A stretch of 64,000 nucleotides of DNA, taken from NCBI GenBank assembly GCA_964195975.1, contig CAXMQZ010000087.1:747-64746 (forward strand), written 5' to 3'. This DNA is from an uncultured Polyangiaceae bacterium. Its GTDB lineage: Bacteria > Acidobacteriota > Thermoanaerobaculia > Multivoradales > JAHEKO01. Positions 36,726-53,750 of the stretch are shown here, one piece after another. A program made the translations under genes and the position numbers. The notes under the pieces were generated by a model. That model saw only the letters and a program-made list of their open reading frames with translations, did no database searches and was not told where the DNA came from. The stretch's first letter is position 1; each line of letters starts with the position of its first letter.

Positions 36726-39170
36726 TTGAACAGCGCCCATCCATTCAGTTCCCGCCGAGCGGAGTTGGTCCACCTCGTCAATATCGTGGTGGTGGCGCTG
36801 TTTGCGACAACCCCGGTTGTGGCCCATATGCCACCAACGGAGGCCGCCAATCAGGCAAGCCAGGGCGCGATGATCCCCGGGCCCAATTCGACGCCACCCT
36901 TTCTTCGTCGCTATATCGATGTCGACTACGGTGGGAACGGAAAGCCGGGATGGGTCCATGCGGCGGACATGGACAGGGATGGCGACCTCGACATCGTCGC
37001 CGGTGGAGGCTTCGCCCTGTTCATCTATGAGAACGACGGCGAAGAAGGTGGCTGGAAGCGGTTTGGAAATCTCGACGTCTCCAACGCTATCGGTGCCAAC
37101 GGTGGAGAGCTCTATGATGTCGACAACGACGGGCATATCGATGTCGTTTCAGCCAAGTACCAGGACGATGTCGGCTGGTGGAAAAACCCCGGGCCCCCTC
37201 TCAGCAGCACTCCCTGGGATTTTTTCATCATTAGCACCGAGACTCGATACATGCACGACCTGATTCGTGTCGATATCGATGGTGATCAGGTCGCAGAGGA
37301 GTTCATTGCCGACCTGAATCAAGGCTACTGGAACGCCAGGATCACAATCAAATGGTTTCGCCCCGGCACTGATCCCCAACAGGCCTGGGAGCAACACACT
37401 ATCGAGGTCGATCGGCCCGAGGGTTCGCCCCATGGGCACTCGGGTCTCGATCTTGCGGACATCGACGACGACGGCCAATTGGATCTTGCCTATTCCAACG
37501 GCTGGTATAAGGGGCCGGCCGATCCGGCAGGGGTATGGACCTGGTACGAAGTCACAGACGAGTACGGCATCTCGAACACTCTTGCCCGGGATATGGATGA
37601 GGACACCGATCTCGATTTATTGATGGGCGCCGGTCACCATGGTCAGGGAGTCTATTGGTACGAGCAACCTGAGGATCCAATCGCAGGAGTCTGGACCAAG
37701 CACGATATCGACGCCTCGATCCATCACCCGGAGTGTCTACAGACGACCGACGACGGCAACGACGGTGACATCGACGTCGTAACCTGCAACCTCTTTTTTG
37801 GTGAGGATCCCGGAGAGCCCGATTGGTCGGAGGAAGTTCACGACATATTCATGTTTGAGAATCTCCCCGGAAAAAACAACTGGGACATGACCCTGATCAG
37901 CCCCAACTCCTTTCCCAGTCATCAACTACAGCTGAGCGATGTCAATCGGGATGGTCGACTGGATATCTTGAGCGAGTCGGCAGCACACTCGGTCATCAGC
38001 TACTACGAGAACGCCTTTGATCGCCTTCGACTCGACCTCGAAGTCGTCGACGAAACCTACCCGGGGAATGGCCGACCCGGCTGGTCGAGCACCGGGTACA
38101 TCGATGGCGACAACCTTCTCGATGTGATCGCTGGAGGCGGTGGAGCTATTCACTGGTATCGAGCACCCGATTGGACGCGATTCCCTATCGAGGTCATTTC
38201 CACCGCAGGCGGCAACGGGGGTCTCATCATGCAGGTCGACGACGATCCCTATCCCGACGTCGTCGCGGCACTGTTTGACGGCGATCTTGTCTGGTGGCGC
38301 AACCCCGGACCCGGTTCGGTAACCGGAGTTTGGACCCGTCACATCATTGACGGTGCTATCTCCGACTTCAACCACGATCTCGTCATGGGAAACCTAGACG
38401 AGGATCCCGACGAAGAGATCGTTGCCCTTTTTGTCGATGGGGGAGTCTTCTGGTACGACATCCCCGCCGATCCGTTGACCTCGCCGTGGCCCAGGACCAC
38501 CATCCTCAATACGATCAGCGACCCTTTTGTTGGACTGGCAATGTGCAATTTAGACGGTGATTCCGATCTCGACGTCGTGATCTCGAACCGCTGGTATGAA
38601 ACGCCGGCGAACCCCTCGACGCCGAACTGGGTTTCGCACCAACTCTTCAGCCAGAATGTTCAAAACGTCACTTGTGCTCAGGTCAACAGTGACGCCAGGA
38701 TGGATGTCGTCGCAGCCGAAGGATTTGTTCATCCGAATGGTCGTATTCTCTGGTCGGAGTCACCACCCGACCCGCGCAATGATTCCTGGGCTGAACATGT
38801 CATTTTGGATGGGCTTGATGGACCCGAGAACATCTGGGCCGGCGATCTCGATGGCGACGGCGACACCGATATCGTAAGTGGCGAAATGGGAACCTCGACC
38901 GGATGGGACGACTCTGACAGCAACCTTTTTATTCTTTTCGGACGCACCACACCAACTCTCGGTTGGGAGCGTCGAGATCAAGCCTGGAGCGTAGGCGTCA
39001 GCGCGCGGGTCAACCCATCCGATTTCGACACCGATGGCGATATCGACTTCGTCGCCGACGGCAACGCCGAGGGTCACATCTATCTCTGGCGCCATGTCGG
39101 GACCAACGCCTTTTTCAGCGACGGCTTCGAGACCGCCGACATGTCGGCTTGGACAGCCTTCCAACCGTAG
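36726..39170 (+). CDS. FG-GAP/VCBS-repeat beta-propeller protein
   Basis: At least 9 DxDxDGxxD(I/L/V)V repeats, for example DMDRDGDLDIV, DVDNDGHIDVV and DLDGDGDTDIV. Confidence 0.7.
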   Translation: MNSAHPFSSRRAELVHLVNIVVVALFATTPVVAHMPPTEAANQASQGAMIPGPNSTPPFLRRYIDVDYGGNGKPGWVHAADMDRDGDLDIVAGGGFALFIYENDGEEGGWKRFGNLDVSNAIGANGGELYDVDNDGHIDVVSAKYQDDVGWWKNPGPPLSSTPWDFFIISTETRYMHDLIRVDIDGDQVAEEFIADLNQGYWNARITIKWFRPGTDPQQAWEQHTIEVDRPEGSPHGHSGLDLADIDDDGQLDLAYSNGWYKGPADPAGVWTWYEVTDEYGISNTLARDMDEDTDLDLLMGAGHHGQGVYWYEQPEDPIAGVWTKHDIDASIHHPECLQTTDDGNDGDIDVVTCNLFFGEDPGEPDWSEEVHDIFMFENLPGKNNWDMTLISPNSFPSHQLQLSDVNRDGRLDILSESAAHSVISYYENAFDRLRLDLEVVDETYPGNGRPGWSSTGYIDGDNLLDVIAGGGGAIHWYRAPDWTRFPIEVISTAGGNGGLIMQVDDDPYPDVVAALFDGDLVWWRNPGPGSVTGVWTRHIIDGAISDFNHDLVMGNLDEDPDEEIVALFVDGGVFWYDIPADPLTSPWPRTTILNTISDPFVGLAMCNLDGDSDLDVVISNRWYETPANPSTPNWVSHQLFSQNVQNVTCAQVNSDARMDVVAAEGFVHPNGRILWSESPPDPRNDSWAEHVILDGLDGPENIWAGDLDGDGDTDIVSGEMGTSTGWDDSDSNLFILFGRTTPTLGWERRDQAWSVGVSARVNPSDFDTDGDIDFVADGNAEGHIYLWRHVGTNAFFSDGFETADMSAWTAFQP

Positions 39171-39178: not shown

Positions 39179-40186
39179 TCAGCGCATACTGTTGAGTCCG
39201 ACAAAGGTGCCACCGTTGCGGCGGCAAAGAATGCGCATGAGGGTGGCAAACCGGACGCCTGTAGTATCGGAGACGCCGGCGACCGTAAAGATAACCGGAA
39301 ATCCGATTGCGTGAATCCTCACCAAACGACTGCCTGATTTGTCGCTCTTGTTGATTCGATCGACGGTTCGCACCACCTCGTCGATGGATCGGCCAGTGAA
39401 CTCGTCACCAAACACGTAGATGCTCACCTTCTTGTCCGGAGCCGCAAAGGTCCTGATGGCTCGCGTAATCCCTTCGACCGGGCTACTGTTGCTAAAAACA
39501 CTCCAGCTGCGCAGGCGATCAAGAATCACTTTCCGGCGTGCCGGTGTATCGGGTATCCACTTTCCGGAGTAGCGCGAGAACATGTACTGGCCCATGTCGT
39601 TCATGACCTGCAAACCCTTGACCGTTGGATAGGCGTCCAGTACCTGCGTCATCTTTTGCTGAACCAGCGGCCAGGCATAGGTAAACATGCTGCCCGAAGT
39701 GTCGATCACGAAGATGATGTACTCGCTATCGACAGGAATTCCTCCGACTAGCTCCTGTTCGATCTTCCGCCTGCCGGTCTGCTGTTGAAGACGGAGCATC
39801 TCGGCTGTGAGATCCTGCTGAGCCGCCTCGAGCCGCCCTGCGATGATCTCACTCACAGCCGAGTCCTGGCTCGATGCGGCAAACTCGCCTTGGATCTCCA
39901 GTAGATCGCCTTTGAGACGTGCGAGCTTCTCCTGCTCTTTCGAGAGTTGTTCGATCCGGCCAGGAAGCTCTCGGTTCAAGATCGTGGTCTCTCCTCGAAT
40001 CTCGAAGAGCTCTTCTTGAAGTTTGGCTATCAACCCATCCAGATCGACTCGTGCCATTTCGATCGCACGGGGCTCGCCGATCTTAGTAAGGACAAGAAGC
40101 AACACAATGGCTCCAAATCCACAACAGATGACGTCCAGGAAGGAGAGACTGAAACCGTCCAGACCAGCCCTGTTTCTTTTTCTCAT
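39179..40186 (-). CDS. ExbD/TolR-like TM anchor + coiled coil + vWA domain protein (paralog 2)
   Basis: The N-terminus SLSFLDVICCGFGAIVLLLVL has an Asp in the ExbD/TolR position. It is followed by a long coiled coil and a vWA motif IIFVIDTSGSM. Confidence 0.6.
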   Translation of the reverse strand: MRKRNRAGLDGFSLSFLDVICCGFGAIVLLLVLTKIGEPRAIEMARVDLDGLIAKLQEELFEIRGETTILNRELPGRIEQLSKEQEKLARLKGDLLEIQGEFAASSQDSAVSEIIAGRLEAAQQDLTAEMLRLQQQTGRRKIEQELVGGIPVDSEYIIFVIDTSGSMFTYAWPLVQQKMTQVLDAYPTVKGLQVMNDMGQYMFSRYSGKWIPDTPARRKVILDRLRSWSVFSNSSPVEGITRAIRTFAAPDKKVSIYVFGDEFTGRSIDEVVRTVDRINKSDKSGSRLVRIHAIGFPVIFTVAGVSDTTGVRFATLMRILCRRNGGTFVGLNSMR

Positions 40187-41307
40187 GGCCAGTCGTCCGA
40201 TGGGCTCAAGAACGACCCTCGCGTGGCCATAGCAAGCCGCCAGAAGGCACTCGATGCTTCGGGGTCTCCCTCCATCGGGAAGAGGATTACGTTGACGGGA
40301 ATGCTCTTGGGTAGCTGATCAAAAGCTCGATTGAACAGCTTGAGTCGCTGTTTGGCGCTGACCTTGTTGGATTTCGGGGGGGTGCGTCCCATCGTAGGTA
40401 GGCCATCGACCAGCAGCACGATATTGTCCGGTTTGGGCTGGAGCGTTGCCACTGATTCGAATGCCCTGTACAGATTGGTACCCTTGTCCGGTGGGGTGAT
40501 CCGGAGGCGCTCGACCGCCTCGTCCAAAAAACCGGGATCGTTGGCTCGCAACCAGGTCCCTTTGGTGTCGGGGATCAAGGATTCAACCCTCTCATTGAAC
40601 GTATAAATCTGAAACTGACTGTCCTCGGGCATTTGGGCCGTTAACCAGTCGACGGTAGCAACAGCCTGACGCCACTTGCCAGACAGAATTTTCTGACGGT
40701 CAGGGAGGTTCCGTCGCCGAATCACATTGACCACAGTAGAGCCCAACATGCTTGCGGAGCTATCCACCAAGATTAGGATCCTGTTTCCACCTACTTTCAA
40801 TCCGGTCAAATACTGACGAGTCCCGTCGCCAATGACCGTGCGGATCTGATCACCTCCTGAGTCTCCTTCGGTCACCGCTAGGGCGGCAAATCGCCGAGTA
40901 CTCTCCTCGAGCGATTTCAAATCGGCCATCAACTTGTTGAGATGCTCCTGCTGCGCAAGACTGAGGTTCTCGTGTGTAGCGAGCTCGACTTGAAGGGCCT
41001 CGATCTCTTCGATGAGCCGTCTAGACAGCCCTTGCGCGATAACTTTTTTCTTGACGATGTCTCGAAGCGAGTTGCGAAGCTCGACGAGTCGCTCATGACC
41101 TTCCAGCACTTCGTAGTCCAGCCGGTCCACTTCGGCCTGCAGGTCTTCGGTCATCCTGTCGGATCTCAGACCCACCGAGGCATTGATCACCATGAACAAG
41201 AGCACCACGGAGCCAAAGCCGCACGTCATCGCATCTAGAAACGACAGGCTGAAGACGCTCGCTTGACCTCTTGACGCTCGTCTAGCCATCGTTCTCCAAC
41301 ACGACAA
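40183..41307 (-). CDS. ExbD/TolR-like TM anchor + coiled coil + vWA domain protein (paralog 1)
   Basis: The N-terminus FSLSFLDAMTCGFGSVVLLF is followed by a coiled coil and the vWA motif ILILVDSSASM. Confidence 0.6.
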   Translation of the reverse strand: MSCWRTMARRASRGQASVFSLSFLDAMTCGFGSVVLLFMVINASVGLRSDRMTEDLQAEVDRLDYEVLEGHERLVELRNSLRDIVKKKVIAQGLSRRLIEEIEALQVELATHENLSLAQQEHLNKLMADLKSLEESTRRFAALAVTEGDSGGDQIRTVIGDGTRQYLTGLKVGGNRILILVDSSASMLGSTVVNVIRRRNLPDRQKILSGKWRQAVATVDWLTAQMPEDSQFQIYTFNERVESLIPDTKGTWLRANDPGFLDEAVERLRITPPDKGTNLYRAFESVATLQPKPDNIVLLVDGLPTMGRTPPKSNKVSAKQRLKLFNRAFDQLPKSIPVNVILFPMEGDPEASSAFWRLAMATRGSFLSPSDDWP

Positions 41308-42691
41308 TCAACGGAATTTCGATACCAGGGCTTCCCAAACCGAGACGATCTCCTGCTTCGGCTTCACAAGTTCCGTCGATCGGTCGGTCGTTGAGGTAGG
41401 TCCCATAGGTACTGTGGTCCTCGATCAGAACCCGATCACCATCTCGGCGGATATGGCAGTGAGATCTCGAGACACCAGTGGTGTCTCCCGTCAGGTTTAC
41501 ACCCCGTTGATCACCAGCCAGGGCCACACCCAACCAGAACGGTTCCTCCCCAATTGGATAGGCGGTGCCACCGTAGACCAGGTGAGTCGGTGGACGCCTC
41601 GCCAGAGTCGGGGCTGTTGTGACGATCGGCTGTTCTCCAGGCTGTGTCGCCACGATATCGACCGTCGGTTTACCCAGTCGAACCACAAAAGGAAGCTCAT
41701 CACCTTCGGCCTCGATTTGGAGGCGATTGACCAGAGCACCAACCGCCGCTGCTCCTTCGGGCAGGACGACGACGTCGGTTCCACTCAGTTCGGCCAACCT
41801 GGATTGCAGCCCTGGAATCGCCGCAGCGCGCGAAGTCAACAGGATCTGCGGCGCGTCTCCTGACGCCGTAAGCGCTCCTGCCAGATTCGAGACTGTTCTG
41901 AGTTGATCTTGCACAGCTGCGATGAACTGACTCCTCGCAACGTCGATCGTATAGATCCGACCTCCATACTCGAGACTCACCTCTGCGACGTCTTCGTCTC
42001 TCAACATGTCCAGCCAAGCCGGCAAGCTGTCGTAGAGAGCCTGCTCGCTGGCTGCGTTGTGCAAAGGGTCGAAACGGGTACTGCGCACAAACTGCCCTGC
42101 GATGAGCTTCGCCCACAGGTCCTGCATCGTGGCAAGACCAACAGCCCCGCTCTCTTGGACCCGCTGGCGGACAAGGCCCGAAGTCTGATCCATCTCGGTC
42201 CAGACAAACCGATGTAGAAGAATCTCCAGATGAAGTATCCGATCGGCGTTCGAGTGACCAGCAACAGATGCGAGCGCGCTATCTACCAGCCCGGAGACAG
42301 GCATCCCGGCGGATCGGGCGATGCCGAGCAGCAGGCCTAGCTGCCAGGTCAGAAACGACCCCGGTACGGCCAGCAACATGCCCTCGACCCCGTCGCCGTC
42401 ACGAGTTGCACTGACAGCCTCCTTCGACAAAGCTTCGAGGTGTCGGTGAACCAGATCCGCCTGAGTGAGCTGTTCGGGGAATGGCCGAGGCAGGGAGTCG
42501 GTACCCAGACTATCCCAGAAGTCATTCAGCGAGCGACGCGGGTTGAGCCGCGCCTGGGCTCTTGCTTCTTGGCCAACAACCACCGATGTGCCGTCCAAGA
42601 GAGCATAACCAGGACTTGGGCCCACGATCAGCCCCTGGCCGTCCGAGATCAAAATGCCCGGGTCGGTAAGCTCGATCGCCAGAATAGACAC
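41282..42691 (-). CDS. Hsp70/actin-fold (possibly catalytically degenerate) protein with C-terminal FHA domain
   Basis: The N-terminus AIELTDPGILIS...VVVGQEARAQARLNPRRSL resembles DnaK GIDLGTTNS...VGQPAKRQAVTNP. The C-terminal FHA signature is GVSRSHCHIRRDGDRVLIEDHSTYGTYLNDRPI. Confidence 0.55.
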   Translation of the reverse strand: MSILAIELTDPGILISDGQGLIVGPSPGYALLDGTSVVVGQEARAQARLNPRRSLNDFWDSLGTDSLPRPFPEQLTQADLVHRHLEALSKEAVSATRDGDGVEGMLLAVPGSFLTWQLGLLLGIARSAGMPVSGLVDSALASVAGHSNADRILHLEILLHRFVWTEMDQTSGLVRQRVQESGAVGLATMQDLWAKLIAGQFVRSTRFDPLHNAASEQALYDSLPAWLDMLRDEDVAEVSLEYGGRIYTIDVARSQFIAAVQDQLRTVSNLAGALTASGDAPQILLTSRAAAIPGLQSRLAELSGTDVVVLPEGAAAVGALVNRLQIEAEGDELPFVVRLGKPTVDIVATQPGEQPIVTTAPTLARRPPTHLVYGGTAYPIGEEPFWLGVALAGDQRGVNLTGDTTGVSRSHCHIRRDGDRVLIEDHSTYGTYLNDRPIDGTCEAEAGDRLGLGSPGIEIPLIVVLENDG

Positions 42692-42741: not shown

Positions 42742-43554
42742 TCAGCTTCTTGTCTCCCCGGCTATTTGAAGATGTCGAATGAGGTTTCGGTCGAGATAGT
42801 TCTCCGTTTCCAGCACCAACCTCTCCTGTTGAAGCTGCAGCTGATGCAGCAAGAACATCAACACGATGCTTATGAGTAGAGCGACAAAAGTCGAGTTGAA
42901 CGCTACCCCCAGGCTCTGGGTAACACCTGCAATATCTCCTTCGACCGCCTTGTGGGCCTGACCCAGGGCCTCACCGATTCCCCGCACTGTTCCTAGAAAG
43001 CCTATCGAAGGGATGGCCCAAGCAATATAGCGAACCATCGACAACTCGGAATCCAGTCGCTCTGACTCGGCATTGACGATTGCATGGGCGGTTGTGGAGA
43101 CATCTTGAATGTTGCGCGTGGCACCAAAGCGATCCAATGAAGCCAGCAATGCCCTGGGAAGAAGATAGTACTGTTCTGACTCCGGTAGCGACTGAATCTG
43201 CCGCGCGTACTCTCGCGCATCTTCCGGAAGGATCTTGGTTCCGTCAGCGAGAAGCACCAACTCCTCTTGCAACTGTTTGTGCTCCTTGGCGGTCTCGATT
43301 CCTTTGTACACCATGATCGCAATCGCCCAAAACATCAGGACAAAACAAGCCTCTTGCTCGAAATCTCGAATAACCACCCAGACGGATCGTTCTTGCACAT
43401 AGGATGGGTCGACCTGCATCAGCGCTGTCTGCTCCGCCAGAATCACAGCAGCGCGAGGTCGAACCACAATCACATAGAAAGCGTGGACGACGATCAGCGA
43501 CACCGCTAGCGATAGGGCTTGGTAAACGAACTCGACCGGGTAGTTCTTTTTCAT
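42742..43554 (-). CDS. MotA/TolQ/ExbB-family proton-channel protein
   Basis: Three TM helices with the conserved YIAWAIPSIGFLGTVRGIGEALG and ...STFVALLISI... signature. Confidence 0.75.
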   Translation of the reverse strand: MKKNYPVEFVYQALSLAVSLIVVHAFYVIVVRPRAAVILAEQTALMQVDPSYVQERSVWVVIRDFEQEACFVLMFWAIAIMVYKGIETAKEHKQLQEELVLLADGTKILPEDAREYARQIQSLPESEQYYLLPRALLASLDRFGATRNIQDVSTTAHAIVNAESERLDSELSMVRYIAWAIPSIGFLGTVRGIGEALGQAHKAVEGDIAGVTQSLGVAFNSTFVALLISIVLMFLLHQLQLQQERLVLETENYLDRNLIRHLQIAGETRS

Positions 43555-43567
43555 GAGAGAAGTGGCC

Positions 43568-43843
43568 TCAGATATCCACAGGAAAGGAAACCGAGCTGCC
43601 AGCCGGCAACTTCTCGGTCGGAACAAAAACCTTCAAAGACTCGGTGGGCCGATCTTGCTGTGACTCCTCGTCCCCACTCTCCTCTTCCGGCGCGCCGCTG
43701 GCCTCAGAGTCCGGTTCCTGCTCGGGGGTGGCTTCGACTTGCTCCGATTCTGACCCGGTTTGGGCCACGGACGGAGAGTCCAGCGTCCACAGCCAACCTG
43801 CCATGACTACCGCGGTGAATAGGACAACGACGATCAATTTCAT
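43568..43843 (-). CDS. small TM-anchored acidic, disordered protein (hypothetical)
   Basis: The 91 aa ORF sits between operon genes with 13-14 bp spacers. It has an N-terminal hydrophobic helix followed by an E/S/D-rich region. Confidence 0.35.
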   Translation of the reverse strand: MKLIVVVLFTAVVMAGWLWTLDSPSVAQTGSESEQVEATPEQEPDSEASGAPEEESGDEESQQDRPTESLKVFVPTEKLPAGSSVSFPVDI

Positions 43844-43857: not shown

Positions 43858-46311
43858 CTATTCAGCAAATCGGGCCACGCGAAAGCCGACATCGGGTCGA
43901 GCTTTGTTGCCATAGTCCCGATAGCTCAGCCTGAGCTCGGTTATTGTCGAATCCATCCAACTCGAACCTCGAATGACACGATAGTCCCCCTCCGCCGGCC
44001 CCAAGGGGTCGACATCAGGTCCTTGCGTCGTCGGTGGCGGTATCGAGTAGTAGTCCTGCACCCACTCGGCGACATTACCGCCCATGTTCTTGACCCCGAC
44101 ATCGTTGGCGTCGAAGCTGTCAACTGGTGCTGTCGCTGGATATCGGTCGTTGTAACCCGAAAGTGTCTTTTGGAGCATCTCAGCTGCCGATTGATCGCCA
44201 TAGTTACCCGATCCTGATGGTACCGGCAACGAATCTCCCCAGGGGAACTTGAGCGCCTGCTGTCGACCAGCAAACCGAGCGGCCCAGGCCCACTCGGCTT
44301 CCGTTGGCAAACGATACCCGGTATTGAACGGTTGCACGAGGACGAATGTGCCACCCTCTCCAGTATAGGCCTTGGGAAGCGAGTCCTGTTCACTCAACCA
44401 GTTGCAAAACCTCACGGCGTCCTCCCAGGTTACTCCAACCACGGGGTGGTCATCTTTTTCCAGACTTGCGCTCTCCGCCCTTCCAGATCGATGACTCGGC
44501 TGAAACTTCTTGAACTGCCGATTGGAGATCTCGCGAGCACCGATGTAGAAAGCTCGTGTAAGCTGAACATCGCGCAGCGTCTCATTGGCCCTGCGGCCCG
44601 GCTCGCGTCGCGACGCGCCCATTCGAAACGAGCCCGGCTCGATCAGCACCAGCTCCTGACCCAGCGAATTACGAAGTGTCGCTGGTGTGGACGCCCTGCG
44701 AACCTCCTCGGGTGTTCTAAGTGTCACCCGAATCTGTTGCGGGAAGCCCGGACGAGGTGTAATGGTCTGCCGAAAGGTCTCGAAACCCTCCTTTTCAACT
44801 ACGATCTCGTGCGGTATGGCTTGCAAACGCAGCGTCTGGTTTGCCCCACCTCTCGATTCGCCATCGACAATGAGCTCTGCATCGGCTGGCCTGCCATCGA
44901 TCTCGATCTCGCCAAATAGGGGTACCAGCTCGACAGTCACCTCGTGTCGTTTTCCGGACACTATTTCGACCGACTCGTTCGAGGCTTCGAAACCCAGCTT
45001 GGATAGACCGATCTCATATGACTTACCTGGCTTGAGCTCCAGCTTCAACGGAGTCTGTCCGGCATATTCGCCATCGATCGACACCGTTGCCTCTCGAGGC
45101 TGACTCGCCAGAACCAAGATTCCATCGCTAGGTTGTAAGACGATTGATGGCAGTGACTGCGGTACATTCGCCTGGACCAGCAGCTGACTCCGATACGATT
45201 TGTACCCTCTCAGACTCACTTCCACCTTTCGACTTCCAGCAGCCACATCGGCTACCACCGGTGTCTTGCCGACCGACATGCCATCAATTTGAATCGTGGC
45301 TCCGGTCGGTTGTGATTTGAATTCGACCGCGGCCCAATTCGGAGTCAAATCAACCGACAAATCGAAGATCGCCCCCGCGCCCTCCACCGGCACCGTAGTC
45401 GAGAACGGGACGTAACTCGGATGAATGATTTCAACAAGGTGGTTGCCCTCCGCCAGCGGCACTGGATCGATTGGTGTTCGGCCGACCGACTTGCCATCGA
45501 CCAGCACCTCTGCGTCACCGCTGGGACGGGCCGTTATGACAAGCAGACCTGGCATCTTCTCTAGCGTGTACTGATAGCTCTGACTAGCCTCACGCGTTAC
45601 TTCGAGTGGTGCTGCCAAAGGAAGATAGCCCTCCTTTTCGAGCCGCACTTGGTATTCGCCCGGGCGAAGAAGATAGCGACCACCCAGCTCGATCTTCAAC
45701 CGAGTTCCGTCGACCGAGACTCGATCCGCCGGCGGATCGCTCGAGATCTCTACAGCCCGGGCGGTAAACAGGAACCAGGCCGCAGAACCCAAAAGCACCA
45801 AACTTGCAAGAACCACTATTCTTGCAAGACTCGGCTTCTTCCTTCTGGCTCGCGTTCGGTCAATCGAAGCCGGCGTAAACTCCACTGGGCTTACTCGCGT
45901 GTCTATCTCATGATCGGCACCCTTTTCCGGCCGAGATCTCGCCTGAACGAGGGGTGGGTCGGTCTTTATCTCAGGGGGTCGATGCGCTATCTCGAAATGA
46001 AAGCCGTTCTCACGTTGGGACACCGAGATCTCACTTTGCCCCAGTCGAAGAATGTCTCCGCTACGCAGCCACTGCGACGCCGATAACGGTGCACCATTAC
46101 AGATCACGACCACATCGCCATCCATGGGTTGGACAAAGAGGTCGCCTCCCTCAAACCCCAGAATGGCCAGCGGTTTGTCGCCGGAATAGCCTGGGATGCG
46201 GATGTCGCTCTCGGGGCCACCTAGATGTAAGGGGAGCTCGTCGGACCGAAACCTGTCCTCTCCATCTGCGTGAACAACCACGATGGCTGTACTCAAATCT
46301 TCTCCTCGCAC
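43858..46311 (-). CDS. FHA - TM - multi-PEGA - FGE-sulfatase (formylglycine-generating-enzyme-like) domain protein
   Basis: An N-terminal FHA domain (..GDILRLGQSEISV..) and one TM helix are followed by at least 5 PEGA-like repeats (..VDGKSVGRTP.., ..IDGMSVGKTP.., ..IDGEYAGQTP..). The C-terminal FGE-sulfatase domain reads RMGAS...HPVVGVTWEDAVRFCNWLS...YRLPTEAEWAWAA...GNVAEWVQD...GFRVARF. Confidence 0.75.
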   Translation of the reverse strand: MRGEDLSTAIVVVHADGEDRFRSDELPLHLGGPESDIRIPGYSGDKPLAILGFEGGDLFVQPMDGDVVVICNGAPLSASQWLRSGDILRLGQSEISVSQRENGFHFEIAHRPPEIKTDPPLVQARSRPEKGADHEIDTRVSPVEFTPASIDRTRARRKKPSLARIVVLASLVLLGSAAWFLFTARAVEISSDPPADRVSVDGTRLKIELGGRYLLRPGEYQVRLEKEGYLPLAAPLEVTREASQSYQYTLEKMPGLLVITARPSGDAEVLVDGKSVGRTPIDPVPLAEGNHLVEIIHPSYVPFSTTVPVEGAGAIFDLSVDLTPNWAAVEFKSQPTGATIQIDGMSVGKTPVVADVAAGSRKVEVSLRGYKSYRSQLLVQANVPQSLPSIVLQPSDGILVLASQPREATVSIDGEYAGQTPLKLELKPGKSYEIGLSKLGFEASNESVEIVSGKRHEVTVELVPLFGEIEIDGRPADAELIVDGESRGGANQTLRLQAIPHEIVVEKEGFETFRQTITPRPGFPQQIRVTLRTPEEVRRASTPATLRNSLGQELVLIEPGSFRMGASRREPGRRANETLRDVQLTRAFYIGAREISNRQFKKFQPSHRSGRAESASLEKDDHPVVGVTWEDAVRFCNWLSEQDSLPKAYTGEGGTFVLVQPFNTGYRLPTEAEWAWAARFAGRQQALKFPWGDSLPVPSGSGNYGDQSAAEMLQKTLSGYNDRYPATAPVDSFDANDVGVKNMGGNVAEWVQDYYSIPPPTTQGPDVDPLGPAEGDYRVIRGSSWMDSTITELRLSYRDYGNKARPDVGFRVARFAE

Positions 46312-48350
46312 CGCACGACCACCGGATCCATTCTTCCCTCTGGGGAGACCTTGAATACACGTCGCACATCGCGGTACCCCTCACGGCTCCCTATCGCGGT
46401 GTAGGAGCCCGGTCGCAACTCGAGCTGACGTTGTTCGAACCGACCGAGCGACCCGACCCGGTAGACCACCACATAAGTGTAGTTGTCAGACACCAGTCGA
46501 ATCTGGACCGGAGTAGAAGCCACCTCGATCACCTGCTCGAGCTGAGTGATCTGGCGTCGGATTCTGGGGCCCTCCGGGAGAGCATCTCTGGCTTGGCCCA
46601 ATAGATCGATGGCCTCATTCAGCACCGGCTGAGTGGAGAATCGATCCGGATGCATGATGTGAAAATCGAGCCGATCGCTCAACTCGGCTCGCTCGGATGC
46701 GAGGCGCTGCCCTTCGATGGCAAAGCGGATCGCTGGGTCGAGCTTCAGGACCGCCGCGTACTCGGTCTCCGCTTCTCGCCAATGCTCGGTACTCGCAAGC
46801 TCCCGCGCCCTTTCGCGATGACTTTCAATCGCTGCTAGACGCATCTGTTGTTCGGCCCTGGCCAGACCATCGGCTGCCTCTCTGGAGTCGGGTCGGACCG
46901 CCAGCGCTCTCTGAAACGCTGCCTGTGCCTCCGAGAAGCTGTCTCGTTCGAGCGCACGCAGGCCAGCCGACATTGCCTCTGAAAAGGCCTTTACACCCTC
47001 GGAACTGGGTCGGCGATTCTGAGGAACCGACAGACGAGGCGGCTCCGGCAACGGCGTTGGCCTGGCAGACGACAGATCTTGATCGGGTGCGGGTGGCTCA
47101 GCTGCAGAAGCAACGACAGGAGAGGGTCGGGCCTCGATCGTCTCAATCGCGTCGCCATCCCCTGAGCTCGGCCCTGTTGACGGTCCTGGGGGCGGCTTGG
47201 CCAGCCCAGCGGGCCCGGACCTACCTTCCTCGGAATCAATTCGTATCGGTTCTCCAGCCTCGATCTCCTCTCCTACATCTTCAGCCGCCTCCGACCCGGG
47301 AACGGCGACCTGAGGATTCTCGCGCACCCAGTTGGGCAGAAGTACAAACACGGCCACCGCCAAGAGCCCAAGAAATCCAAATGCCAAGACGGTCATGATC
47401 CGGCCAGAGCTCCAGCGACTACCGACCCGCCCTTTCGTACGCTGAGCCGAAATAGATGCGGTAGCTATTCGCGATTCCAACGCACGAGGTGGAGCGCTGA
47501 TTCGAATGGGTGCTACCGGACGACCCTCGGGCTTCGCATCCGTGGTCGAGATCACGGCGAGTACTTCCTTCAAGGCTTGTCGAACAGATGCCATGTCCGA
47601 AGGCCTGTCTGAGGATCTTCGAGACAGCATGCTAGCGACCAGGTCATCAGCTTCGACAGGTAGCGAGCAGATCGAAGAGAGTCTGGTCGCCGTGCGACCA
47701 TAGCGGTCCTCGATCGAAGCGAGATCCGAAAAGACGGACTTTCCGGCGATGAGCTCGAACAACAGAGTGCCCAGCCCGTAGATGTCATCCGAGATGGCTG
47801 CAGGCTCCCCGCTCGATTGCTGTGGACTCTGATTGGTCTTCGAACCGCCACCAACCAGCTGCAAGTCTGTGGCGCTCGGTTCGAGCAGACCTGCTATTCC
47901 AAAATCACCGACGCGTAGCCGCCCTTGCTTGTCGAGCAGAATATTGCTGCACTTCAGATCGCGATGAATGACTCCGGCGGCATGCGCGTATTCCAGTGCG
48001 TCAACGACTCCACCTACTTTTTTCAGAATAGCAGGCAGAGAACCACCGAGTAGCTGCCCCATATCCCCGCCATCGAGATACTCAGCCGTGTAGAAGATCT
48101 CCTGATCGACTTCATGGAGCTCATAGACTCGGACGATGTTTTCGTGAACGAGTTTTTTCGCTATCCGAAACTCTTGCCGCAACAGATCAGCCGAGGTCCC
48201 CGAGGCATTGCCCCGCGCCAACTTGATCACCAGGTCGATATCGAACTCGGTGTCATGGGCGAGCCAAACCTCGCTCATACCCCCCGAGCCGATGCTTCGA
48301 ATCGCCTTGAAACGGGTACCGAGATGGCGTGAGCTACTCAAGTCAGGCAT
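46293..48350 (-). CDS. Hanks-type Ser/Thr protein kinase with TM segment and C-terminal TPR-like/unknown extracytoplasmic domain
   Basis: Kinase motifs GSGGMSEV, HRDLKCSNILL and DFG are present. A TM helix (IMTVLAFGFLGLLAVAVFVLL) is followed by a Pro-rich linker and helical repeats. It overlaps the downstream gene by 19 bp. Confidence 0.85.
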   Translation of the reverse strand: MPDLSSSRHLGTRFKAIRSIGSGGMSEVWLAHDTEFDIDLVIKLARGNASGTSADLLRQEFRIAKKLVHENIVRVYELHEVDQEIFYTAEYLDGGDMGQLLGGSLPAILKKVGGVVDALEYAHAAGVIHRDLKCSNILLDKQGRLRVGDFGIAGLLEPSATDLQLVGGGSKTNQSPQQSSGEPAAISDDIYGLGTLLFELIAGKSVFSDLASIEDRYGRTATRLSSICSLPVEADDLVASMLSRRSSDRPSDMASVRQALKEVLAVISTTDAKPEGRPVAPIRISAPPRALESRIATASISAQRTKGRVGSRWSSGRIMTVLAFGFLGLLAVAVFVLLPNWVRENPQVAVPGSEAAEDVGEEIEAGEPIRIDSEEGRSGPAGLAKPPPGPSTGPSSGDGDAIETIEARPSPVVASAAEPPAPDQDLSSARPTPLPEPPRLSVPQNRRPSSEGVKAFSEAMSAGLRALERDSFSEAQAAFQRALAVRPDSREAADGLARAEQQMRLAAIESHRERARELASTEHWREAETEYAAVLKLDPAIRFAIEGQRLASERAELSDRLDFHIMHPDRFSTQPVLNEAIDLLGQARDALPEGPRIRRQITQLEQVIEVASTPVQIRLVSDNYTYVVVYRVGSLGRFEQRQLELRPGSYTAIGSREGYRDVRRVFKVSPEGRMDPVVVRCEEKI

Positions 48351-48371: not shown

Positions 48372-49610
48372 TCACTGCAAAGACGAGGTCTCGATGGCCA
48401 GCTCCGTGTCGGCGTTGGGGTCACCAGCAAGTCCGGTCTCCGTGGCATAGATTTGTTGAAGCAGACCTCGCCACTTGGCGTACTGGTTTTCGAGGTTACC
48501 GGTAAGGCGAACGGTCTCGCCCTCCACCTCCACCACCAACGGGGCGACCTCGGCATCGAACGAAACCCCGAGCTCCCTGATGGCTTCGCGATGCATCTTG
48601 GCTTCTTTTCCGGTTGCTATTCCGCTTCGCAGCACCATGATGCCACCGATCAGGGCAGCATCCCTGGCCACCGCCTCCAGACCGCTTCCTGGACTGGCTA
48701 CGACAGCTCCAAAGATCGCCAGTGCACCAATGATTTTGCGATTTCGAGCCTTTTTCTTGATCTCGTCCAATGCTATCTGCTCTTCGTAGGTGTAAGAGCG
48801 CCAGTCGTCGTAGGGAACCTCCATCGAAGCAGAGAAGTTGGCGTAGTTCTCATTGAGCGTGTCGATGAACATGTAGTCGCGCTCTCGTATCTGGACGATT
48901 CGGCCCATCATGGGATCGTCTTGCGCAGGCAGCTTCGCTACCGTATAGCGACCCTTCCTGTTGATCTCCAGATAGTCGTCGTAGAGCGTGGGTGCCAAGC
49001 CTCTTGCAAAACGCAGCTCGGAGATCCGTCTAAGCACCAGAAGATCTTCATTCTTCAGTTTTCTCCGAGTCTCGAGAAGCTCATTGGCTATGGCTCCATA
49101 GAGCGCCTCGAACGGCTCACGTGTCTCCAGTTCCTCGCTCTTCGGACCATAGGCGCGAGTGTCAGCCTCCTGTTTGAATCGCTTCTCCAGCCACTCGCGT
49201 CCGGATGAATCGGTGGCGCTTACCTCGACGACAAGCACTTTTCCATTCGACTTGATGATTCGACCGGTCACCGTCAGATCAACCGATGCGGTGTCTTGAG
49301 GCACGACCCGAACGGCACCCCATTGCCCCGTAGACTCGAGAGTCTCTTTCAAGCGCATGGGAATGTAGCGAGCCTCAGACTTTCGAACCTCAGGAAAGAC
49401 CTCGACCTGGTACTTCTTGTCTGTCGTCGGTTCCTCGGAGAGACCCGGATCAAAGAGCTCGATCCCCACATCGAGAAGGCTGTCCTCGGGTATGTCCTCG
49501 CGGGCCTGGATGGCCTTTGTGCTGGTCGTAGCGCTGGTTGCCGGACCGGATAGACCGGTAAGGAAAAGAGCTGCTGCCAGAAAAGTGCATCGAAGCTGAA
49601 GTCGTTTCAT
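48372..49610 (-). CDS. secreted hypothetical protein (signal peptide, C-terminal hydrophobic segment)
   Basis: The 412 aa ORF is in the operon. It has a signal peptide (MKRLQLRCTFLAAALFLTGLSGPATSA). Confidence 0.5.
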   Translation of the reverse strand: MKRLQLRCTFLAAALFLTGLSGPATSATTSTKAIQAREDIPEDSLLDVGIELFDPGLSEEPTTDKKYQVEVFPEVRKSEARYIPMRLKETLESTGQWGAVRVVPQDTASVDLTVTGRIIKSNGKVLVVEVSATDSSGREWLEKRFKQEADTRAYGPKSEELETREPFEALYGAIANELLETRRKLKNEDLLVLRRISELRFARGLAPTLYDDYLEINRKGRYTVAKLPAQDDPMMGRIVQIRERDYMFIDTLNENYANFSASMEVPYDDWRSYTYEEQIALDEIKKKARNRKIIGALAIFGAVVASPGSGLEAVARDAALIGGIMVLRSGIATGKEAKMHREAIRELGVSFDAEVAPLVVEVEGETVRLTGNLENQYAKWRGLLQQIYATETGLAGDPNADTELAIETSSLQ

Positions 49611-49636: not shown

Positions 49637-50596
49637 TCAGCTCTTGCTGCTACCGGACTTGTAGTCCCGATACTCTTCCCACAGTTTCTCACGAAGCTCC
49701 GGATCGTCCTCGGTCATGGCTGCCTCTCGAAGCTGTCGCGCGATGATGTCGTCGTCGCTTCCATCACCGACATCCGATGGCACCCGGCCACCACCACCGC
49801 CTCCGGCAGATCCGCCACTCGCTTCACCTTCCTGCTCGGCCACTTCTTGTTGCTCGGCTTGTTCCGCGGCACCACCCGACTCCTCTCCTTCAGCCCCGGC
49901 CTCAACATCGGCGATCGCAGTGTCAGCATACTCTCCAGCACCCGAGTATCCTCCGCTTTCGGCTCCTGAGGCGGCCTCCTCCGCAGCGGCCGCGCTCGCC
50001 TCTTCCCGGCGCTCCTTTTCGAGAAGCTCCTGTTCTCGGAGCAACTCGCCATCGAACTCGGCAAGCGATCGCGCCAACTCTTCATCGAGAGCCGCGGTCC
50101 GCTCGCCGGCGGTCTGCGATCCTTGACGGATCGCGCCTCCAGAGGCTGCAGCCCTGGCATCATCGGGTACGGCGGGGCCACTTGGCTCGCTCGGCTCCCC
50201 AGAGGGATTTTCAGAACCCGGATCGCTCATAGAGGCTTTCTCAGGTTGACCACCCTCGGGCCCAGCAGCACCGTCCTCTCCAGAGGACATTTCATCGCTG
50301 CCGCCTTCAGCCGACTCGGCGCCCTCTCCAGGGGGCAGTACCTGCTCGACCTGAGAGGTTTCGGCTCCCCCTCCCGATTCCGAATCCGAAGGTGGCTGGC
50401 TGGGGTCAGAGGGGCTGGATGTCGGAGATGGAGGTGGAGGCGTCGAAGGTGTTTGCGGGGCCGACGGCGAGGGTGGAGTCGGCGGCGGCATCGATGGCGA
50501 AGGAGGCTGCGTCGAGGTACTCGAACAGCCCACGAAGGCCATCGCATGACCGATCAACGCTGCTACCAACAGTAGTTTTCTTGGCTTGACTCTCAT
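49637..50596 (-). CDS. lipoprotein with Pro/Ser-rich and acidic low-complexity regions
   Basis: Starts at MRVKPRKLLLVAALIGHAMAFVGC (lipobox-like). It has PPTPPSPSAPQTPSTPPPPSP and E/A/G-rich tracts. Confidence 0.5.
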   Translation of the reverse strand: MRVKPRKLLLVAALIGHAMAFVGCSSTSTQPPSPSMPPPTPPSPSAPQTPSTPPPPSPTSSPSDPSQPPSDSESGGGAETSQVEQVLPPGEGAESAEGGSDEMSSGEDGAAGPEGGQPEKASMSDPGSENPSGEPSEPSGPAVPDDARAAASGGAIRQGSQTAGERTAALDEELARSLAEFDGELLREQELLEKERREEASAAAAEEAASGAESGGYSGAGEYADTAIADVEAGAEGEESGGAAEQAEQQEVAEQEGEASGGSAGGGGGGRVPSDVGDGSDDDIIARQLREAAMTEDDPELREKLWEEYRDYKSGSSKS

Positions 50597-50774
50597 GACA
50601 TCAGCTCTCGTTAGCAGCGGCAACTCGAACAGGGCGCGATTCTCAGGTCCGGGCGATTCCCAACCGAACATTCCCGATGTGTCCGAGCAGGAACTGATTA
50701 CAGTCTAGCTCAAGCTCGTTCGACCTTGAGAACCGCTGCGTCTACCTCTAAATTCCTAGCAAATACCAGGCCAA

Positions 50775-51731
50775 TTACTTCGGTAGGGGAACTGCGAAGT
50801 GCTGTCGACAGAACTCCAAACGAGCCACAATCGAAGCTGGTTCACTCGAGATCGACTGCACCAATTCGAGACGACTCTGTAGCCCTGCTTCGTTGGCGAT
50901 CTGGATACTGAGACCCGGTCGGGCATTGAACTCGAGAATCAAAGGGCCAAGATCGCGGTCGATGACGATATCGATTCCAAGATATCCCAGTCCCGTGATC
51001 TCGTATCCTTCCGCCGCCATTTCTAGAATCTGGTTCCAAGCGGGCAGAACCATCCCTGCCAGCTTCTGACCAGTGTCAGGGTGCTCGCTGACGCAACGAT
51101 TGTCCAGAACACCCCCCAGGCTAGATCCGGTAGCGATGTCGACACCAACGCCTACCGCCCCCTGATGCAAGTTTGCTCGGCCATCGGAGAGCCGGGTCGG
51201 GAGCCGAGTCATCGCCATGACGGGATAACCCTGAAATACGATGAGTCGAATGTCGGGCACGCCGCGATAGCTCATCGGCGCCAGCGCCTCCGCGGTCTGG
51301 ACGCAGTACTCGACCATCACCCTGTCGCGTTGACCACCGAGGCTGTAGAGACCACTGAGCATGTTGGAAATGTGATGGGCCATCTCATCCCGATCGACCG
51401 GGGCACCGCTCGATTTGAAAAAGACATCTCGCCGACGACCCTTGATCACCAACACACCGTTGCCACCGCTACCGTGGGCTGGCTTTACGACAAACTGATC
51501 TCGAGCTCCCAATAAGTCTGTGAGATCTCGAATGTCATGCTGAGTCGATAAGACAGCAAACAGTTCCGGGACGGGCATTCCAGCCTCGACTGCCAGCTGT
51601 TTTGTGCGTAGCTTGTCGTCGACGAGGGGGTAGAGTCGCCGCGGGTTGAACCGGCGGATGTAGTCGACGTTGCGGCTATTAATGCCCAGCACACCAAGCC
51701 GTCGAAGATGTTGTACCCCGTTATTCATCAC
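50775..51731 (-). CDS. RimK-like ATP-grasp amidoligase (alpha-L-glutamate ligase-related)
   Basis: ATP-grasp motifs are present (..FVVKPAHGSGGNGV.., ..LGYLGIDIVID...ILEFNARPG). The N-terminal RLAN-like region is MMNNGV..LGINSRN. Confidence 0.75.
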   Translation of the reverse strand: MMNNGVQHLRRLGVLGINSRNVDYIRRFNPRRLYPLVDDKLRTKQLAVEAGMPVPELFAVLSTQHDIRDLTDLLGARDQFVVKPAHGSGGNGVLVIKGRRRDVFFKSSGAPVDRDEMAHHISNMLSGLYSLGGQRDRVMVEYCVQTAEALAPMSYRGVPDIRLIVFQGYPVMAMTRLPTRLSDGRANLHQGAVGVGVDIATGSSLGGVLDNRCVSEHPDTGQKLAGMVLPAWNQILEMAAEGYEITGLGYLGIDIVIDRDLGPLILEFNARPGLSIQIANEAGLQSRLELVQSISSEPASIVARLEFCRQHFAVPLPK

Positions 51732-53244: not shown

Positions 53245-53750
53245 TTGCCATCCTCCAACGGACAGGTGGGTTCGGTGGTGAACGACTCGCCGGCATCAAC
53301 CAGCGCGACATTCTCGAGAGCATTGCGCCCCAGGAGGACCGGATACTGGAATCCACTCCGGTCGACGAGACTGACCTCGACCTCATCGAGATGATCACCG
53401 AGGCAGATCTCTACTTGTACAACCGGACGGCGCTGGCTTGGCCCCTCGTGTTCTTTGATGTAGGCGTAACGAATCAATCTTTTCTTGTACCGAATTCGGC
53501 GGCCCGAGTTTCTGTCGATAACCAAGAACTCGACCCATCGATCACCGTCTCTCTCCCTATAGCGCCGAATCTTGGAGGCGTCGAGCGACGAGGTGTCAGC
53601 TCCAGTGTCCAGCTTGGCCTCCATCCTCAGGCGACTCTTGCCTATCTCTACCCGCTCGACCCAACCAAAGATGTCTTTCTTTCGAGAGACTGCCCACGAG
53701 GGTTCAACTAAAAGAACCACAAAGAGAAAAGCCGGAAGCGCAACTGACAC
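53241..53750 (-). CDS. retropepsin-like aspartyl protease (Pfam 'putative ATP-dependent zinc protease' family)
   Basis: It has a signal peptide and the LDTGADTSSL aspartyl-protease motif. The conserved partner genes lie downstream. Confidence 0.65.
   Translation of the reverse strand: MSVALPAFLFVVLLVEPSWAVSRKKDIFGWVERVEIGKSRLRMEAKLDTGADTSSLDASKIRRYRERDGDRWVEFLVIDRNSGRRIRYKKRLIRYAYIKEHEGPSQRRPVVQVEICLGDHLDEVEVSLVDRSGFQYPVLLGRNALENVALVDAGESFTTEPTCPLEDGK

Follow-up and report, generated by a model that had tools for sequence, protein, structure and literature searches.

Bacterial genomes contain a great many domains that have the fold of the formylglycine-generating enzyme (FGE) but lack its catalytic cysteines, and nearly all of them are unexplained. 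PorK (GldK), a protein of this fold, is non-enzymatic and is located in the periplasm beside a proton-driven 5:2 motor, GldLM/PorLM. The present work concerns a gene for another FGE-like protein, found on the minus strand (43858–46311 in its longest form) of a 64,000-nucleotide stretch of DNA from an uncultured Polyangiaceae bacterium (assembly GCA_964195975.1, contig CAXMQZ010000087.1, positions 747–64,746), referred to as the window. The protein, here called PEGA-FGE, is encoded in a nine-gene cluster together with a TolQ-like channel protein and two vWA proteins. Our preferred reading, held with moderate confidence, is that PEGA-FGE belongs to a TolQ-like/vWA machine as a subunit that spans the periplasm and binds or scaffolds without enzymatic activity; the machine would carry an optional phospho-signalling layer. 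The functional statements made about it are drawn from sequence, predicted structure and synteny.

Several other described systems share parts of this gene set. The FHA folds of YscD/PrgH in type III secretion and of EssC in type VII secretion act without phosphothreonine. In the H1 type VI secretion system of Pseudomonas, the bitopic Hanks kinase PpkA, which has a periplasmic domain, works with FHA scaffolds and the PP2C phosphatase PppA, and the PpkA–Fha1 threonine-phosphorylation pathway gates type VI secretion, an envelope-spanning machine. Hanks kinases fused directly to FGE-sulfatase domains constitute the "Proteo1" family in an atlas of bacterial Ser/Thr kinases (10.1101/2025.01.12.632604). 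Kaur et al. (2020; PMC7159879) described the FGE-sulfatase domain (FGS) as a non-catalytic binder, as well as PEGA domains behind a transmembrane (TM) segment and vWA domains, and discussed no TolQ/MotA-linked system. Finally, tolQ-like genes without tolR have been linked to heterologous pairs of TM-tethered vWA proteins, in which a "transpore helix" carries a proton-binding Asp, and the combination was proposed to be a new 5:2 motor (Mol Biol Evol 2025; PMC12204202).

Three genes of the window cluster, encoding the TolQ-like protein and the vWA pair with its helix Asp, fit the description in PMC12204202; the published set was seeded with Idiomarina, and the likeness is one of description. In contrast to the cluster described here, that paper makes no mention of a kinase, FHA, Hsp70-like, PEGA-FGE, TPR or small secreted partner: the words "kinase", "sulfatase" and "PEGA" do not occur in its text, and the matches to "kinase" in its supplement are unrelated. 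The Proteo1 proteins resemble the window locus in bringing a Ser/Thr kinase and a periplasmic FGE-like domain together in one signalling unit, and two such fusions (P0102 and P0103) were among the matches of the homologue search with PEGA-FGE. Here, however, the two parts are separate, translationally coupled proteins, and the PEGA-FGE family persists in lineages without the kinase. Within the searchable library of papers, literature searches for the architecture of PEGA-FGE or for the full operon found no description of either.

A conserved cluster around a TolQ-like protein and two vWA proteins

The nine genes of the cluster all lie on the minus strand. The proton-channel protein of the TolQ/ExbB/MotA type is encoded at 42742–43626 and was identified by matches to MotA_ExbB and TolQ. 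The TTG start chosen by the open reading frame (ORF) finder overlaps the small gene upstream; the start supported by homology is Met25 (≈43554), where the protein begins MKKNYPVEF. No TolR/ExbD gene was found in the cluster with the Pfam ExbD model. The two vWA proteins are encoded by adjacent genes. vWA protein 1 (374 aa, 40183–41307) begins with a helix of the TolR/ExbD type, FSLSFLDAMTCGFG, whose Asp is invariant; it also has a coiled coil and a vWA domain in which the metal-ion-dependent adhesion site (MIDAS) reads DSSAS. In vWA protein 2 (335 aa, 39179–40186) the TolR-like helix, FSLSFLDVICCGFG, is paralogous and the vWA domain is divergent, its motif being DTSGS. The MIDAS motif D-x-S-x-S is kept by both proteins, and the helix pattern (F/L)S(L/M)(S/A)FLD..CGFG, including the invariant Asp, occurs in both paralogues at 16 of 16 loci.

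Between the TolQ-like and vWA genes lies a gene (41282–42691) for a predicted cytoplasmic protein of 469 aa, comprising a part that resembles the nucleotide-binding domain (NBD) of Hsp70 (residues 1–340), a disordered linker and an FHA domain (residues 370–462). The FHA domain passes the Pfam threshold and keeps its S-R-S-H motif. The AlphaFold2 (AF2) model of the Hsp70-NBD-like part has a mean predicted local distance difference test (pLDDT) score of 89.6, and its top Foldseek matches are all Hsp70 NBDs (E = 1e-19, target-normalised template modelling score, or TM-score, up to 0.78). When the 469-aa sequence was searched against the Protein Data Bank (PDB) with phmmer, the FHA domain alone was matched; a family profile weakly added Ssz1 (E = 0.012). 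A homologue search with this Hsp70-like–FHA protein gave 669 matches.

The gene immediately upstream of PEGA-FGE (46293–48350) encodes a 685-aa protein that combines a Hanks Ser/Thr kinase (residues 15–258; K43, HRD at 129–131 and DFG at 149–151 are present) with a TM helix at ≈318–340, a Pro-rich linker, a TPR region at ≈455–545 and a β-rich C-terminal domain. Residues ≈585–685 (46296–46598, minus strand) are the best-conserved part of this protein across loci, including those that have no kinase domain. The periplasmic C-terminal domain resembles a PEGA-type sandwich (LRPGSYTAIGSREGYRDV), and no Pfam model matched it significantly. Further upstream are genes for a 412-aa secreted protein with a signal peptide, conserved in synteny (48372–49610), and for a predicted lipoprotein (49637–50671) with the lipobox FVGC, a long low-complexity region of acidic character and a C-terminal segment that is conserved. 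About 70% of the lipoprotein is low-complexity sequence of Pro, Ser, Glu, Gly and Ala, and its last ≈45–150 residues alone are conserved (...DDDIIARQLREAAMTEDDPELREKLWEEYRDYK).

The remaining gene (43568–43843), between those of PEGA-FGE and the TolQ-like protein, encodes a small secreted protein of 91 aa with a signal peptide, an acidic linker and a conserved C-terminus. A small gene is found at the equivalent position in L081–L089, including L081 (12462–12644), L082 (12442–12792), L083 (11449–11685), L084 (11417–11731), L085 (11426–11791) and L086 (11061–11393), and the proteins encoded there range from 58 to 121 aa. Their C-terminus, F-x-P-S/T-E-x-x-x-A/E-D-x-x-V-x-F-P-x-D-I-COOH, is always conserved, unlike the acidic body. 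The small protein has the look of a peptide ligand on a tether, which might bind the TPR domain, the MIDAS of a vWA protein or the FGE-like head. Pfam and NCBIfam searches with the 344-aa and 412-aa upstream proteins, the 91-aa protein and the N-terminal 384 residues of the 469-aa protein returned no credible family.

Related loci (n = 19) were collected by three routes: a genome scan (L001–L010), homologues of PEGA-FGE (L081–L086) and homologues of the Hsp70-like protein (L087–L089). The scan used the generic FGE motifs GGN[VA]AEW and RLPTEAEW; 10 of its 80 loci were orthologous, and the others were unrelated FGE-domain genes. The genes for PEGA-FGE, for a TolQ-like protein and for the vWA pair were present at all 19 related loci. 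All ten orthologous scan loci keep PEGA-FGE, the TolQ-like protein and the vWA protein(s), and the 412-aa protein and the TPR C-terminal region were found in 8 of the 8 scan loci that reach far enough upstream. The same gene order was seen in L081–L086, and L087–L089, which were reached independently through the Hsp70-like protein, carry a PEGA-FGE gene as well. Where the contig permits, the 412-aa gene, the TPR C-terminal half, the Hsp70-like gene and the small secreted gene are also present. These loci are labelled as Gammaproteobacteria (Steroidobacter, Lysobacterales, Pseudomonadales, Luminiphilus, Porticoccaceae, SAR92 and OM182), Acidobacteriota (Sulfidibacter) and Myxococcales, and the genes that flank the cluster vary from genome to genome. 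The invariant partners of PEGA-FGE are thus the TolQ-like channel, two vWA proteins with TolR-type helices, the Hsp70-NBD-like protein, the TPR protein and three secreted proteins or lipoproteins, and pairing with a kinase is not its defining context.

In a metagenome-assembled genome (MAG) of Myxococcales (L088), the cluster is arranged in two divergent operons (13499–20794, minus strand, and 8826–13471, plus strand), and gene calling places the FHA-like domain in a gene of its own (174 aa), which lies upstream of a PEGA-FGE gene of 604 aa. The separation may be a real split or a frameshift.

Start codon and architecture of PEGA-FGE

The longest reading frame of the PEGA-FGE gene is an uninterrupted ORF of 817 codons from a GTG at 46311 to the stop at 43858, and residue numbers in this paper count from this GTG. 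The start is probably the TTG at 46296–46294, five codons downstream, which gives a coding sequence of 43858–46296 and a protein of 812 aa. This TTG is preceded, with a 5-nt spacer, by the Shine–Dalgarno-like sequence AGGAG (46302–46306). Most homologues open with "MS..IV...", in agreement with the TTG start. The TTG also forms part of the tetranucleotide TTGA (46293–46296), in which the PEGA-FGE start overlaps the TGA stop of the kinase gene (46295–46293) by 4 bp, and the identical 4-bp start/stop overlap was called by gene callers in L081, L082, L084, L085, L087 and L089. The initial annotation had given the overlap with the kinase gene as 19 bp, a value that belongs to the longest ORF only, and had described the gene as translationally coupled to the upstream membrane kinase. 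With a 4-bp overlap and AGGAG at 5 nt, the case for coupling becomes better rather than worse.

About 70 homologues of 785–835 aa align over 97–100% of PEGA-FGE at 38–75% identity. End-to-end alignments were obtained with about 95 homologues of ≈800 aa, and the ORF is intact, not split by a frameshift. Labelled relatives come from MAGs of Thermoanaerobaculia/Acidobacteriota and Gammaproteobacteria, and homologues are filed in databases under generic names, for instance "PEGA domain-containing protein" and, for one homologue at NCBI, "SUMF1/EgtB/PvdO family nonheme iron enzyme".

The four-part architecture that had been read from the sequence, an FHA fold, a TM helix, PEGA repeats and an FGE-like domain, is present in the protein, and the PEGA and FGE-sulfatase parts were both recovered by Pfam. 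PEGA (PF08308) matched in five stretches (E = 7.3e-60, 199.2 bits against a gathering cut-off of 20.8). Self-comparison of the protein placed the boundaries of these β-sandwich repeats at about residues 186–253, 255–323, 326–393, 397–464 and 467–535 (residues 186–535 in all, 44707–45756, minus strand). A hydropathy scan detected a single hydrophobic segment at about residues 160–185, within which the TM helix was placed at ≈163–183 (45763–45825). The sequence RTRARRKKPS stands directly in front of it, so that by the positive-inside rule the N-terminus would be inside and the C-terminus outside. We therefore infer that PEGA-FGE is a bitopic inner-membrane protein with a cytoplasmic FHA-like part and periplasmic PEGA and FGE-like parts. 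The display of the FGE-like part on the periplasmic side, as originally proposed, fits this charge distribution around the single helix.

Two short motifs lie in the predicted cytoplasmic linker between the FHA-like domain and the membrane. The first, T117-D-P-P (45952–45963), follows the FHA-like domain in a flexible linker where the AF2 model has a pLDDT of ≈80 and no secondary structure. In the homologue alignment, the columns of T117, P119 and P120 are near-invariant, and this T-x-P-P motif belongs to the FHA-bearing forms of the protein; it is a candidate phospho-acceptor or docking motif. The second is the juxtamembrane sequence RVSPVEFTP (residues 139–147, 45871–45897), with the family pattern I-x-P-V-x-F-x-P, which is retained before the TM helix in FHA-less homologues of ≈690 aa.

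The FGE-like domain lacks the catalytic cysteine pair

The C-terminal domain (residues 552–814, 43870–44658, minus strand) has the FGE-sulfatase, or C-type-lectin-like, fold and is predicted to be non-catalytic. Pfam FGE-sulfatase (PF03781) matched it over positions 3–255 of the 255-position profile (E = 4.7e-48, 164.5 bits against a cut-off of 23.3). The domain resembles the true FGEs (human SUMF1 and the Streptomyces and Thermomonospora enzymes) in fold and in the motifs RLPTEAEW and G-N-x-x-E-W, but differs in its position behind a membrane anchor and PEGA repeats and in that both Cu-binding cysteines are replaced in the family. In the alignment to the human FGE structure 2afy (...GGSYMCHRS...), Cys336 is aligned with D787 and Cys341 with E792, the two ends of the stretch D787-S-T-I-T-E792 (43936–43953). 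The two columns hold H, Q, D or S and E, D or Q, respectively, and no Cys was seen in either of them among 95 homologues; cysteine occurs only twice in the whole PEGA-FGE protein, at positions 71 and 636. Thus, the check for a catalytic Cys pair that had been suggested at the outset shows that the pair is absent. Judged by its sequence, the FGE-like domain is not a formylglycine-generating, sulfatase-maturing enzyme, and a scan of 20 neighbouring ORFs revealed no sulfatase.

The best NCBIfam model for the domain was that of GldK/PorK (TIGR03525; 9e-36, 124 bits against an equivalog cut-off of 350), and PorK chains were among the PDB matches, with a long alignment over positions 79–273 of the 276-residue query. 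PorK shares the FGE-sulfatase fold with PEGA-FGE, but it is an outer-membrane lipoprotein, whereas PEGA-FGE has an N-terminal FHA-like domain and a TM helix and no lipobox. The motor partner of PorK is GldL/M, as opposed to TolQ-like and vWA proteins here, and there are no type IX secretion (Por/Gld) genes in the cluster.

Could the domain nevertheless be an active enzyme of the SUMF1/EgtB/PvdO type, acting on a periplasmic substrate, for example in the oxidative maturation of the small protein encoded downstream? The strong FGE-sulfatase match, the name that NCBI has given to one homologue, and weak matches to PvdO and SenA/EgtB models speak for such a role, as does the small secreted protein with its conserved C-terminal peptide that is always encoded next door. 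The family also has invariant charged or polar residues of its own in this domain (R569, E570, R573, N576, E577, H607 and S609). On the other hand, the Cys pair is absent in all 95 homologues, the enzyme models score far below their NCBIfam cut-offs (PvdO 54 against 500, EgtB 31.8 against 360 and SenA 39.5 against 420), and the best-scoring family model is that of a structural protein, PorK/GldK. A sulfoxide synthase of the EgtB/OvoA/SenA kind was rejected as a candidate: these enzymes require a DinB-like domain with an iron-binding His triad, and no DinB-type domain precedes the FGE fold, the region being occupied by the five PEGA repeats (Pfam). Taken together, we regard an enzymatic function as improbable.

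FGE-fold domains also occur as variable proteins of diversity-generating retroelements (DGRs). We rejected a TvpA/Mtd-type DGR protein as a candidate, because no second copy of the 3' 843 nt of the gene, which would represent the template repeat, was found in the window, and because the C-terminus is highly conserved, with R794, R798, D799, R805, D807, G809, R811 and R814 all invariant.

The C-terminus bears as well on the idea that the cluster serves in anti-phage defence or conflict, like the systems described by Kaur et al. (2020), in which case the surface-exposed FGE-like domain would bind the invader and the kinase, FHA and vWA proteins would form a threshold response, possibly with a Zorya-like motor of the MotA type. 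FGS, TM-anchored PEGA, vWA and kinase domains recur in conflict systems (PMC7159879), PADLOC matched the TolQ-like protein weakly to ZorA (2e-4) and gave generic defence-kinase matches, and the flanking genes differ between genomes. However, the FGE-like C-terminus is strongly conserved rather than hypervariable, with no DGR repeat in the window, and the cluster contains no core NTPase of the MoxR, STAND or GTPase kind and encodes no nuclease, TIR or caspase effector. PADLOC-DB 2.0 had no match to PEGA-FGE, the vWA proteins, the Hsp70-like protein or the secreted proteins, and gave generic kinase and MotA matches only. The rigid gene order across Gammaproteobacteria, Acidobacteriota and Myxococcota is also that of a housekeeping envelope machine, and a role in conflict seems to us a long shot.

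A degenerate FHA fold at the N-terminus

When residues 1–161 of PEGA-FGE were searched alone against Pfam at E ≤ 10, there was no match, FHA (PF00498) included. A profile built from 34 sequences of the N-terminal family was then compared with PDB sequences and matched the FHA domains of Ki-67, Rv1747, FhaA and GarA with E-values from 1e-4 to 1e-2; 13 of the first 14 PDB matches were FHA domains. The AF2 model of residues 1–123 has a pLDDT of 92.2, and its 50 best Foldseek PDB matches are all FHA (best E = 1.7e-4, TM-score ≈0.5–0.58). Based on the profile and the model, the N-terminal domain (residues 9–110, 45982–46287, minus strand) is predicted to have a degenerate FHA fold and to be cytoplasmic, with modest scores throughout.

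The residues that contact phosphothreonine (pThr) in canonical FHA domains are not kept. In the profile-to-structure alignment, the Arg of the canonical "GR" is deleted in the family, and the invariant G31 matches its Gly. The S-x-x-H positions are unconserved and are D/K/P/L in the window protein, and no stretch of the domain varies more than the loop that bears the canonical S/T-x-N (FxQPxxxxxxVxxNG). N72, which together with P27, G31 and W81 is invariant in the family, pairs with the structural "vNG" turn and not with the peptide-binding Asn. Since the pThr-contacting Arg, Ser, His and Asn are missing or unconserved, canonical pThr recognition by this domain is not supported. Thus, the N-terminal FHA domain of the initial annotation is upheld as a fold by the profile, AF2 and Foldseek, but not as a match to the Pfam family or as a domain with pThr-binding residues, and the proposed link to phosphothreonine recognition in the cytoplasm is left unsupported.

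A domain of this kind resembles the N-termini of YscD/PrgH and EssC/YukB, where a cytoplasmic FHA fold precedes one TM helix and a series of domains repeated on the periplasmic or extracellular side, and EssC/T7SSb FHA structures were among the Foldseek matches (9qks_H at rank 7 and 5fwh at rank 31). The likeness does not extend to the periplasmic parts, which in those proteins are unrelated (ring-building motifs or ATPase domains), or to a secretion ATPase or export gate, neither of which is present in the cluster.

The architecture had been called unusual, but in the sense of rare this does not hold, as the N-terminal domain family alone comprises 702 clusters at 50% identity (E ≤ 1e-10). 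Five long proteins (P0229, P0250, P0254, P0304 and P0344; 865–5734 aa) contain 4–7 tandem matches to the FHA-like profile, with E-values down to 1e-34, showing that this FHA subtype also occurs as arrays in unrelated architectures.

The kinase and FHA domains as an accessory block

For a survey of modules, the query proteins were divided into domains and each locus was searched with them. The kinase domain, the FHA-like domain of PEGA-FGE and the FHA domain of the Hsp70-like protein were all present in the window, L001, L003, L082, L083, L084, L085, L088 and L089. Both FHA domains were found without a kinase domain in L081 and L087, and all three modules were absent from L004, L005, L007, L010 and L086. 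L008 lacks both FHA domains and has a weak kinase-like stretch (25% identity), and L002 has the FHA-like domain of PEGA-FGE and neither a kinase domain nor an Hsp70-like gene. Overall, the two FHA domains are jointly present in 11 loci and jointly absent from six complete FHA-less loci, and a clear kinase domain is confined to loci with both FHAs, occurring in 9 of the 11. All three modules behave like a single regulatory block that is accessory to the core.

These data bear on a simpler model, in which PEGA-FGE is a receptor-like transducer that senses a ligand through its periplasmic FGE-like domain while its FHA domain canonically reads pThr made by the kinase, the kinase–substrate pair being the functional unit. 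Such a receptor would be in keeping with the FHA fold, with the 4-bp overlap that couples the gene to that of the kinase, with the retention of K43, HRD and DFG in the kinase, and with the finding that the FHA-like domain occurs in kinase lineages and is missing from those that lack the kinase domain. However, L081 and L087 have an FHA and no kinase domain in the cluster, and the pThr-contacting residues are missing or unconserved in a domain that Pfam does not recognize as FHA. Moreover, in L004, L005, L007, L010 and L086 the PEGA-FGE core occurs without kinase and FHA. The absence of kinase and FHA domains from some lineages shows that the core machine does not need the kinase, and the bare PEGA-FGE core of the Pseudomonadales-type loci that kinase pairing is not its core function. 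The receptor model is therefore unlikely.

The block is alike in logic to the PpkA–Fha1–PppA pathway, with a kinase, FHA proteins and, in L089, a PP2C-type phosphatase beside the cluster, but there are no type VI secretion genes, and the FHA-like domain of PEGA-FGE is without the pThr-binding residues used by Fha1. The phosphatase gene of L089 (13465–15102, minus strand) has FHA, GAF and SpoIIE (PP2C-type) domains and directly follows the second vWA gene; L089 is the only locus seen with a phosphatase adjoining the cluster. In the window, the ORFs scanned up to ≈9 kb on either side of the cluster included no gene for a PP2C or other phosphatase.

A model for the cluster

In the reading that we prefer, the core of the cluster would be a proton-driven motor of the 5:2 type, made of a TolQ-like pentamer and a vWA heterodimer. 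The vWA pair would contribute its TolR-like Asp helices in place of TolR/ExbD, following the proposal of PMC12204202. With its PEGA stalk and FGE-like head, PEGA-FGE would form a non-enzymatic binding or scaffold subunit spanning the periplasm, comparable to PorK, and it would be partnered in the periplasm or at the outer membrane by the TPR protein, the lipoprotein and the secreted proteins. In the cytoplasm, PEGA-FGE may be tied to the Hsp70-NBD-like protein through its juxtamembrane peptide and its FHA-like domain.

Some lineages would then have added the phospho-layer as a block, with a kinase on the TPR protein, an FHA domain on the Hsp70-like protein and an FHA-like domain on PEGA-FGE. 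Where present, the kinase might regulate assembly or activity through phosphosites, T117 being a candidate, and the better-preserved FHA domain of the Hsp70-like protein could read phosphorylated T117. The FHA-like domain of PEGA-FGE itself is most likely a phospho-independent or non-canonical docking module, like those of YscD/PrgH and EssC.

Several points weigh against this interpretation. The 5:2 motor is itself a computational proposal only (PMC12204202), and each protein–protein contact in the model is taken from synteny alone. The analogy with PorK is built on a sub-threshold family match (124 bits against 350), and by phmmer the similarity of the domain to true FGEs (E = 3e-22 to human FGE, local) is about equal to that to PorK (E = 2e-17). 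Without the Cys pair, FGE chemistry is ruled out, but not every kind of catalysis; the PvdO family, called a dehydrogenase by NCBIfam, also matches the domain, below its cut-off. The evidence for the FHA fold, although consistent, is numerically modest (E ≈ 1e-4, TM-score ≈0.5–0.58). L081 and L087 are FHA-positive yet have no kinase domain in cis, and the co-variation of the FHA-like and kinase domains could equally mean that the FHA-like domain binds phosphosites in a non-canonical way.

A more specific version of the model is correspondingly more tentative, and we think of it as possible rather than probable. According to this version, the cluster would encode a new trans-envelope machine in which a TolQ-like pentamer turns the vWA heterodimer, PEGA-FGE serves as a PorK-like scaffold or ligand-binding arm across the periplasm, and the Hanks kinase gates the machine from the cytoplasm via the FHA domains on PEGA-FGE and on the Hsp70-NBD-like (actin-fold) protein.

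Genes flanking the cluster

Adjacent to the cluster on its upstream side is a unit of three minus-strand genes (50775–53750) encoding a Zn_protease (53241–53750), an inactive transglutaminase fused to seven TM helices (7TM; 51721–53244) and a sugar-transfer-associated ATP-grasp protein (50775–51731), which together constitute a RimK-like peptide-ligase system that is separate from the cluster and not conserved with it. The ATP-grasp and 7TM-transglutaminase genes were considered as members of the cluster and rejected, being absent from all related loci. At the other end, a plus-strand gene for an 814-aa FG-GAP repeat protein (36726–39170) converges on the cluster; it is not found beside the cluster in other genomes. 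Farther away, a LemA gene followed by two TPM-domain genes (33013–35280, plus strand) represents the common LemA–TPM membrane triad, and a 711-aa protein (56088–58223, plus strand) has ankyrin repeats fused to a PQQ/BamB-like β-propeller, an uncommon combination in bacteria.

Significance

Taken singly, the domain themes are already known: fusions of a kinase to FGE-sulfatase, PEGA domains that follow a TM segment, FGS acting as a binder without catalysis, and TolQ-only/vWA pairs. What appears to be new is the domain combination of PEGA-FGE, the set of partners of the proposed motor, and the block-wise occurrence of the kinase/FHA layer. The TolQ-plus-vWA-pair "motor" was proposed in 2025 without a function or partners, and a conserved partner set can now be supplied, comprising PEGA-FGE, the TPR(-kinase) protein, the Hsp70-NBD(-FHA) protein, two secreted proteins and a lipoprotein. 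For the FGE-like protein, the fixed set of partners suggests a structural or binding function next to a proton-driven motor, like that of PorK in type IX secretion. An anonymous "PEGA domain-containing protein" thereby becomes a testable hypothesis in organisms such as Steroidobacter denitrificans (ACG33_00830) and Sulfidibacter corallicola.

The lineages with and without the kinase offer a natural experiment on threonine phosphorylation of an envelope motor. If the gated version of the model is true, it would be the first example of a motor of the TolQ/ExbB family under the control of Ser/Thr phosphorylation. The window thus contains an uncharacterised and testable envelope system rather than a single-protein curiosity.

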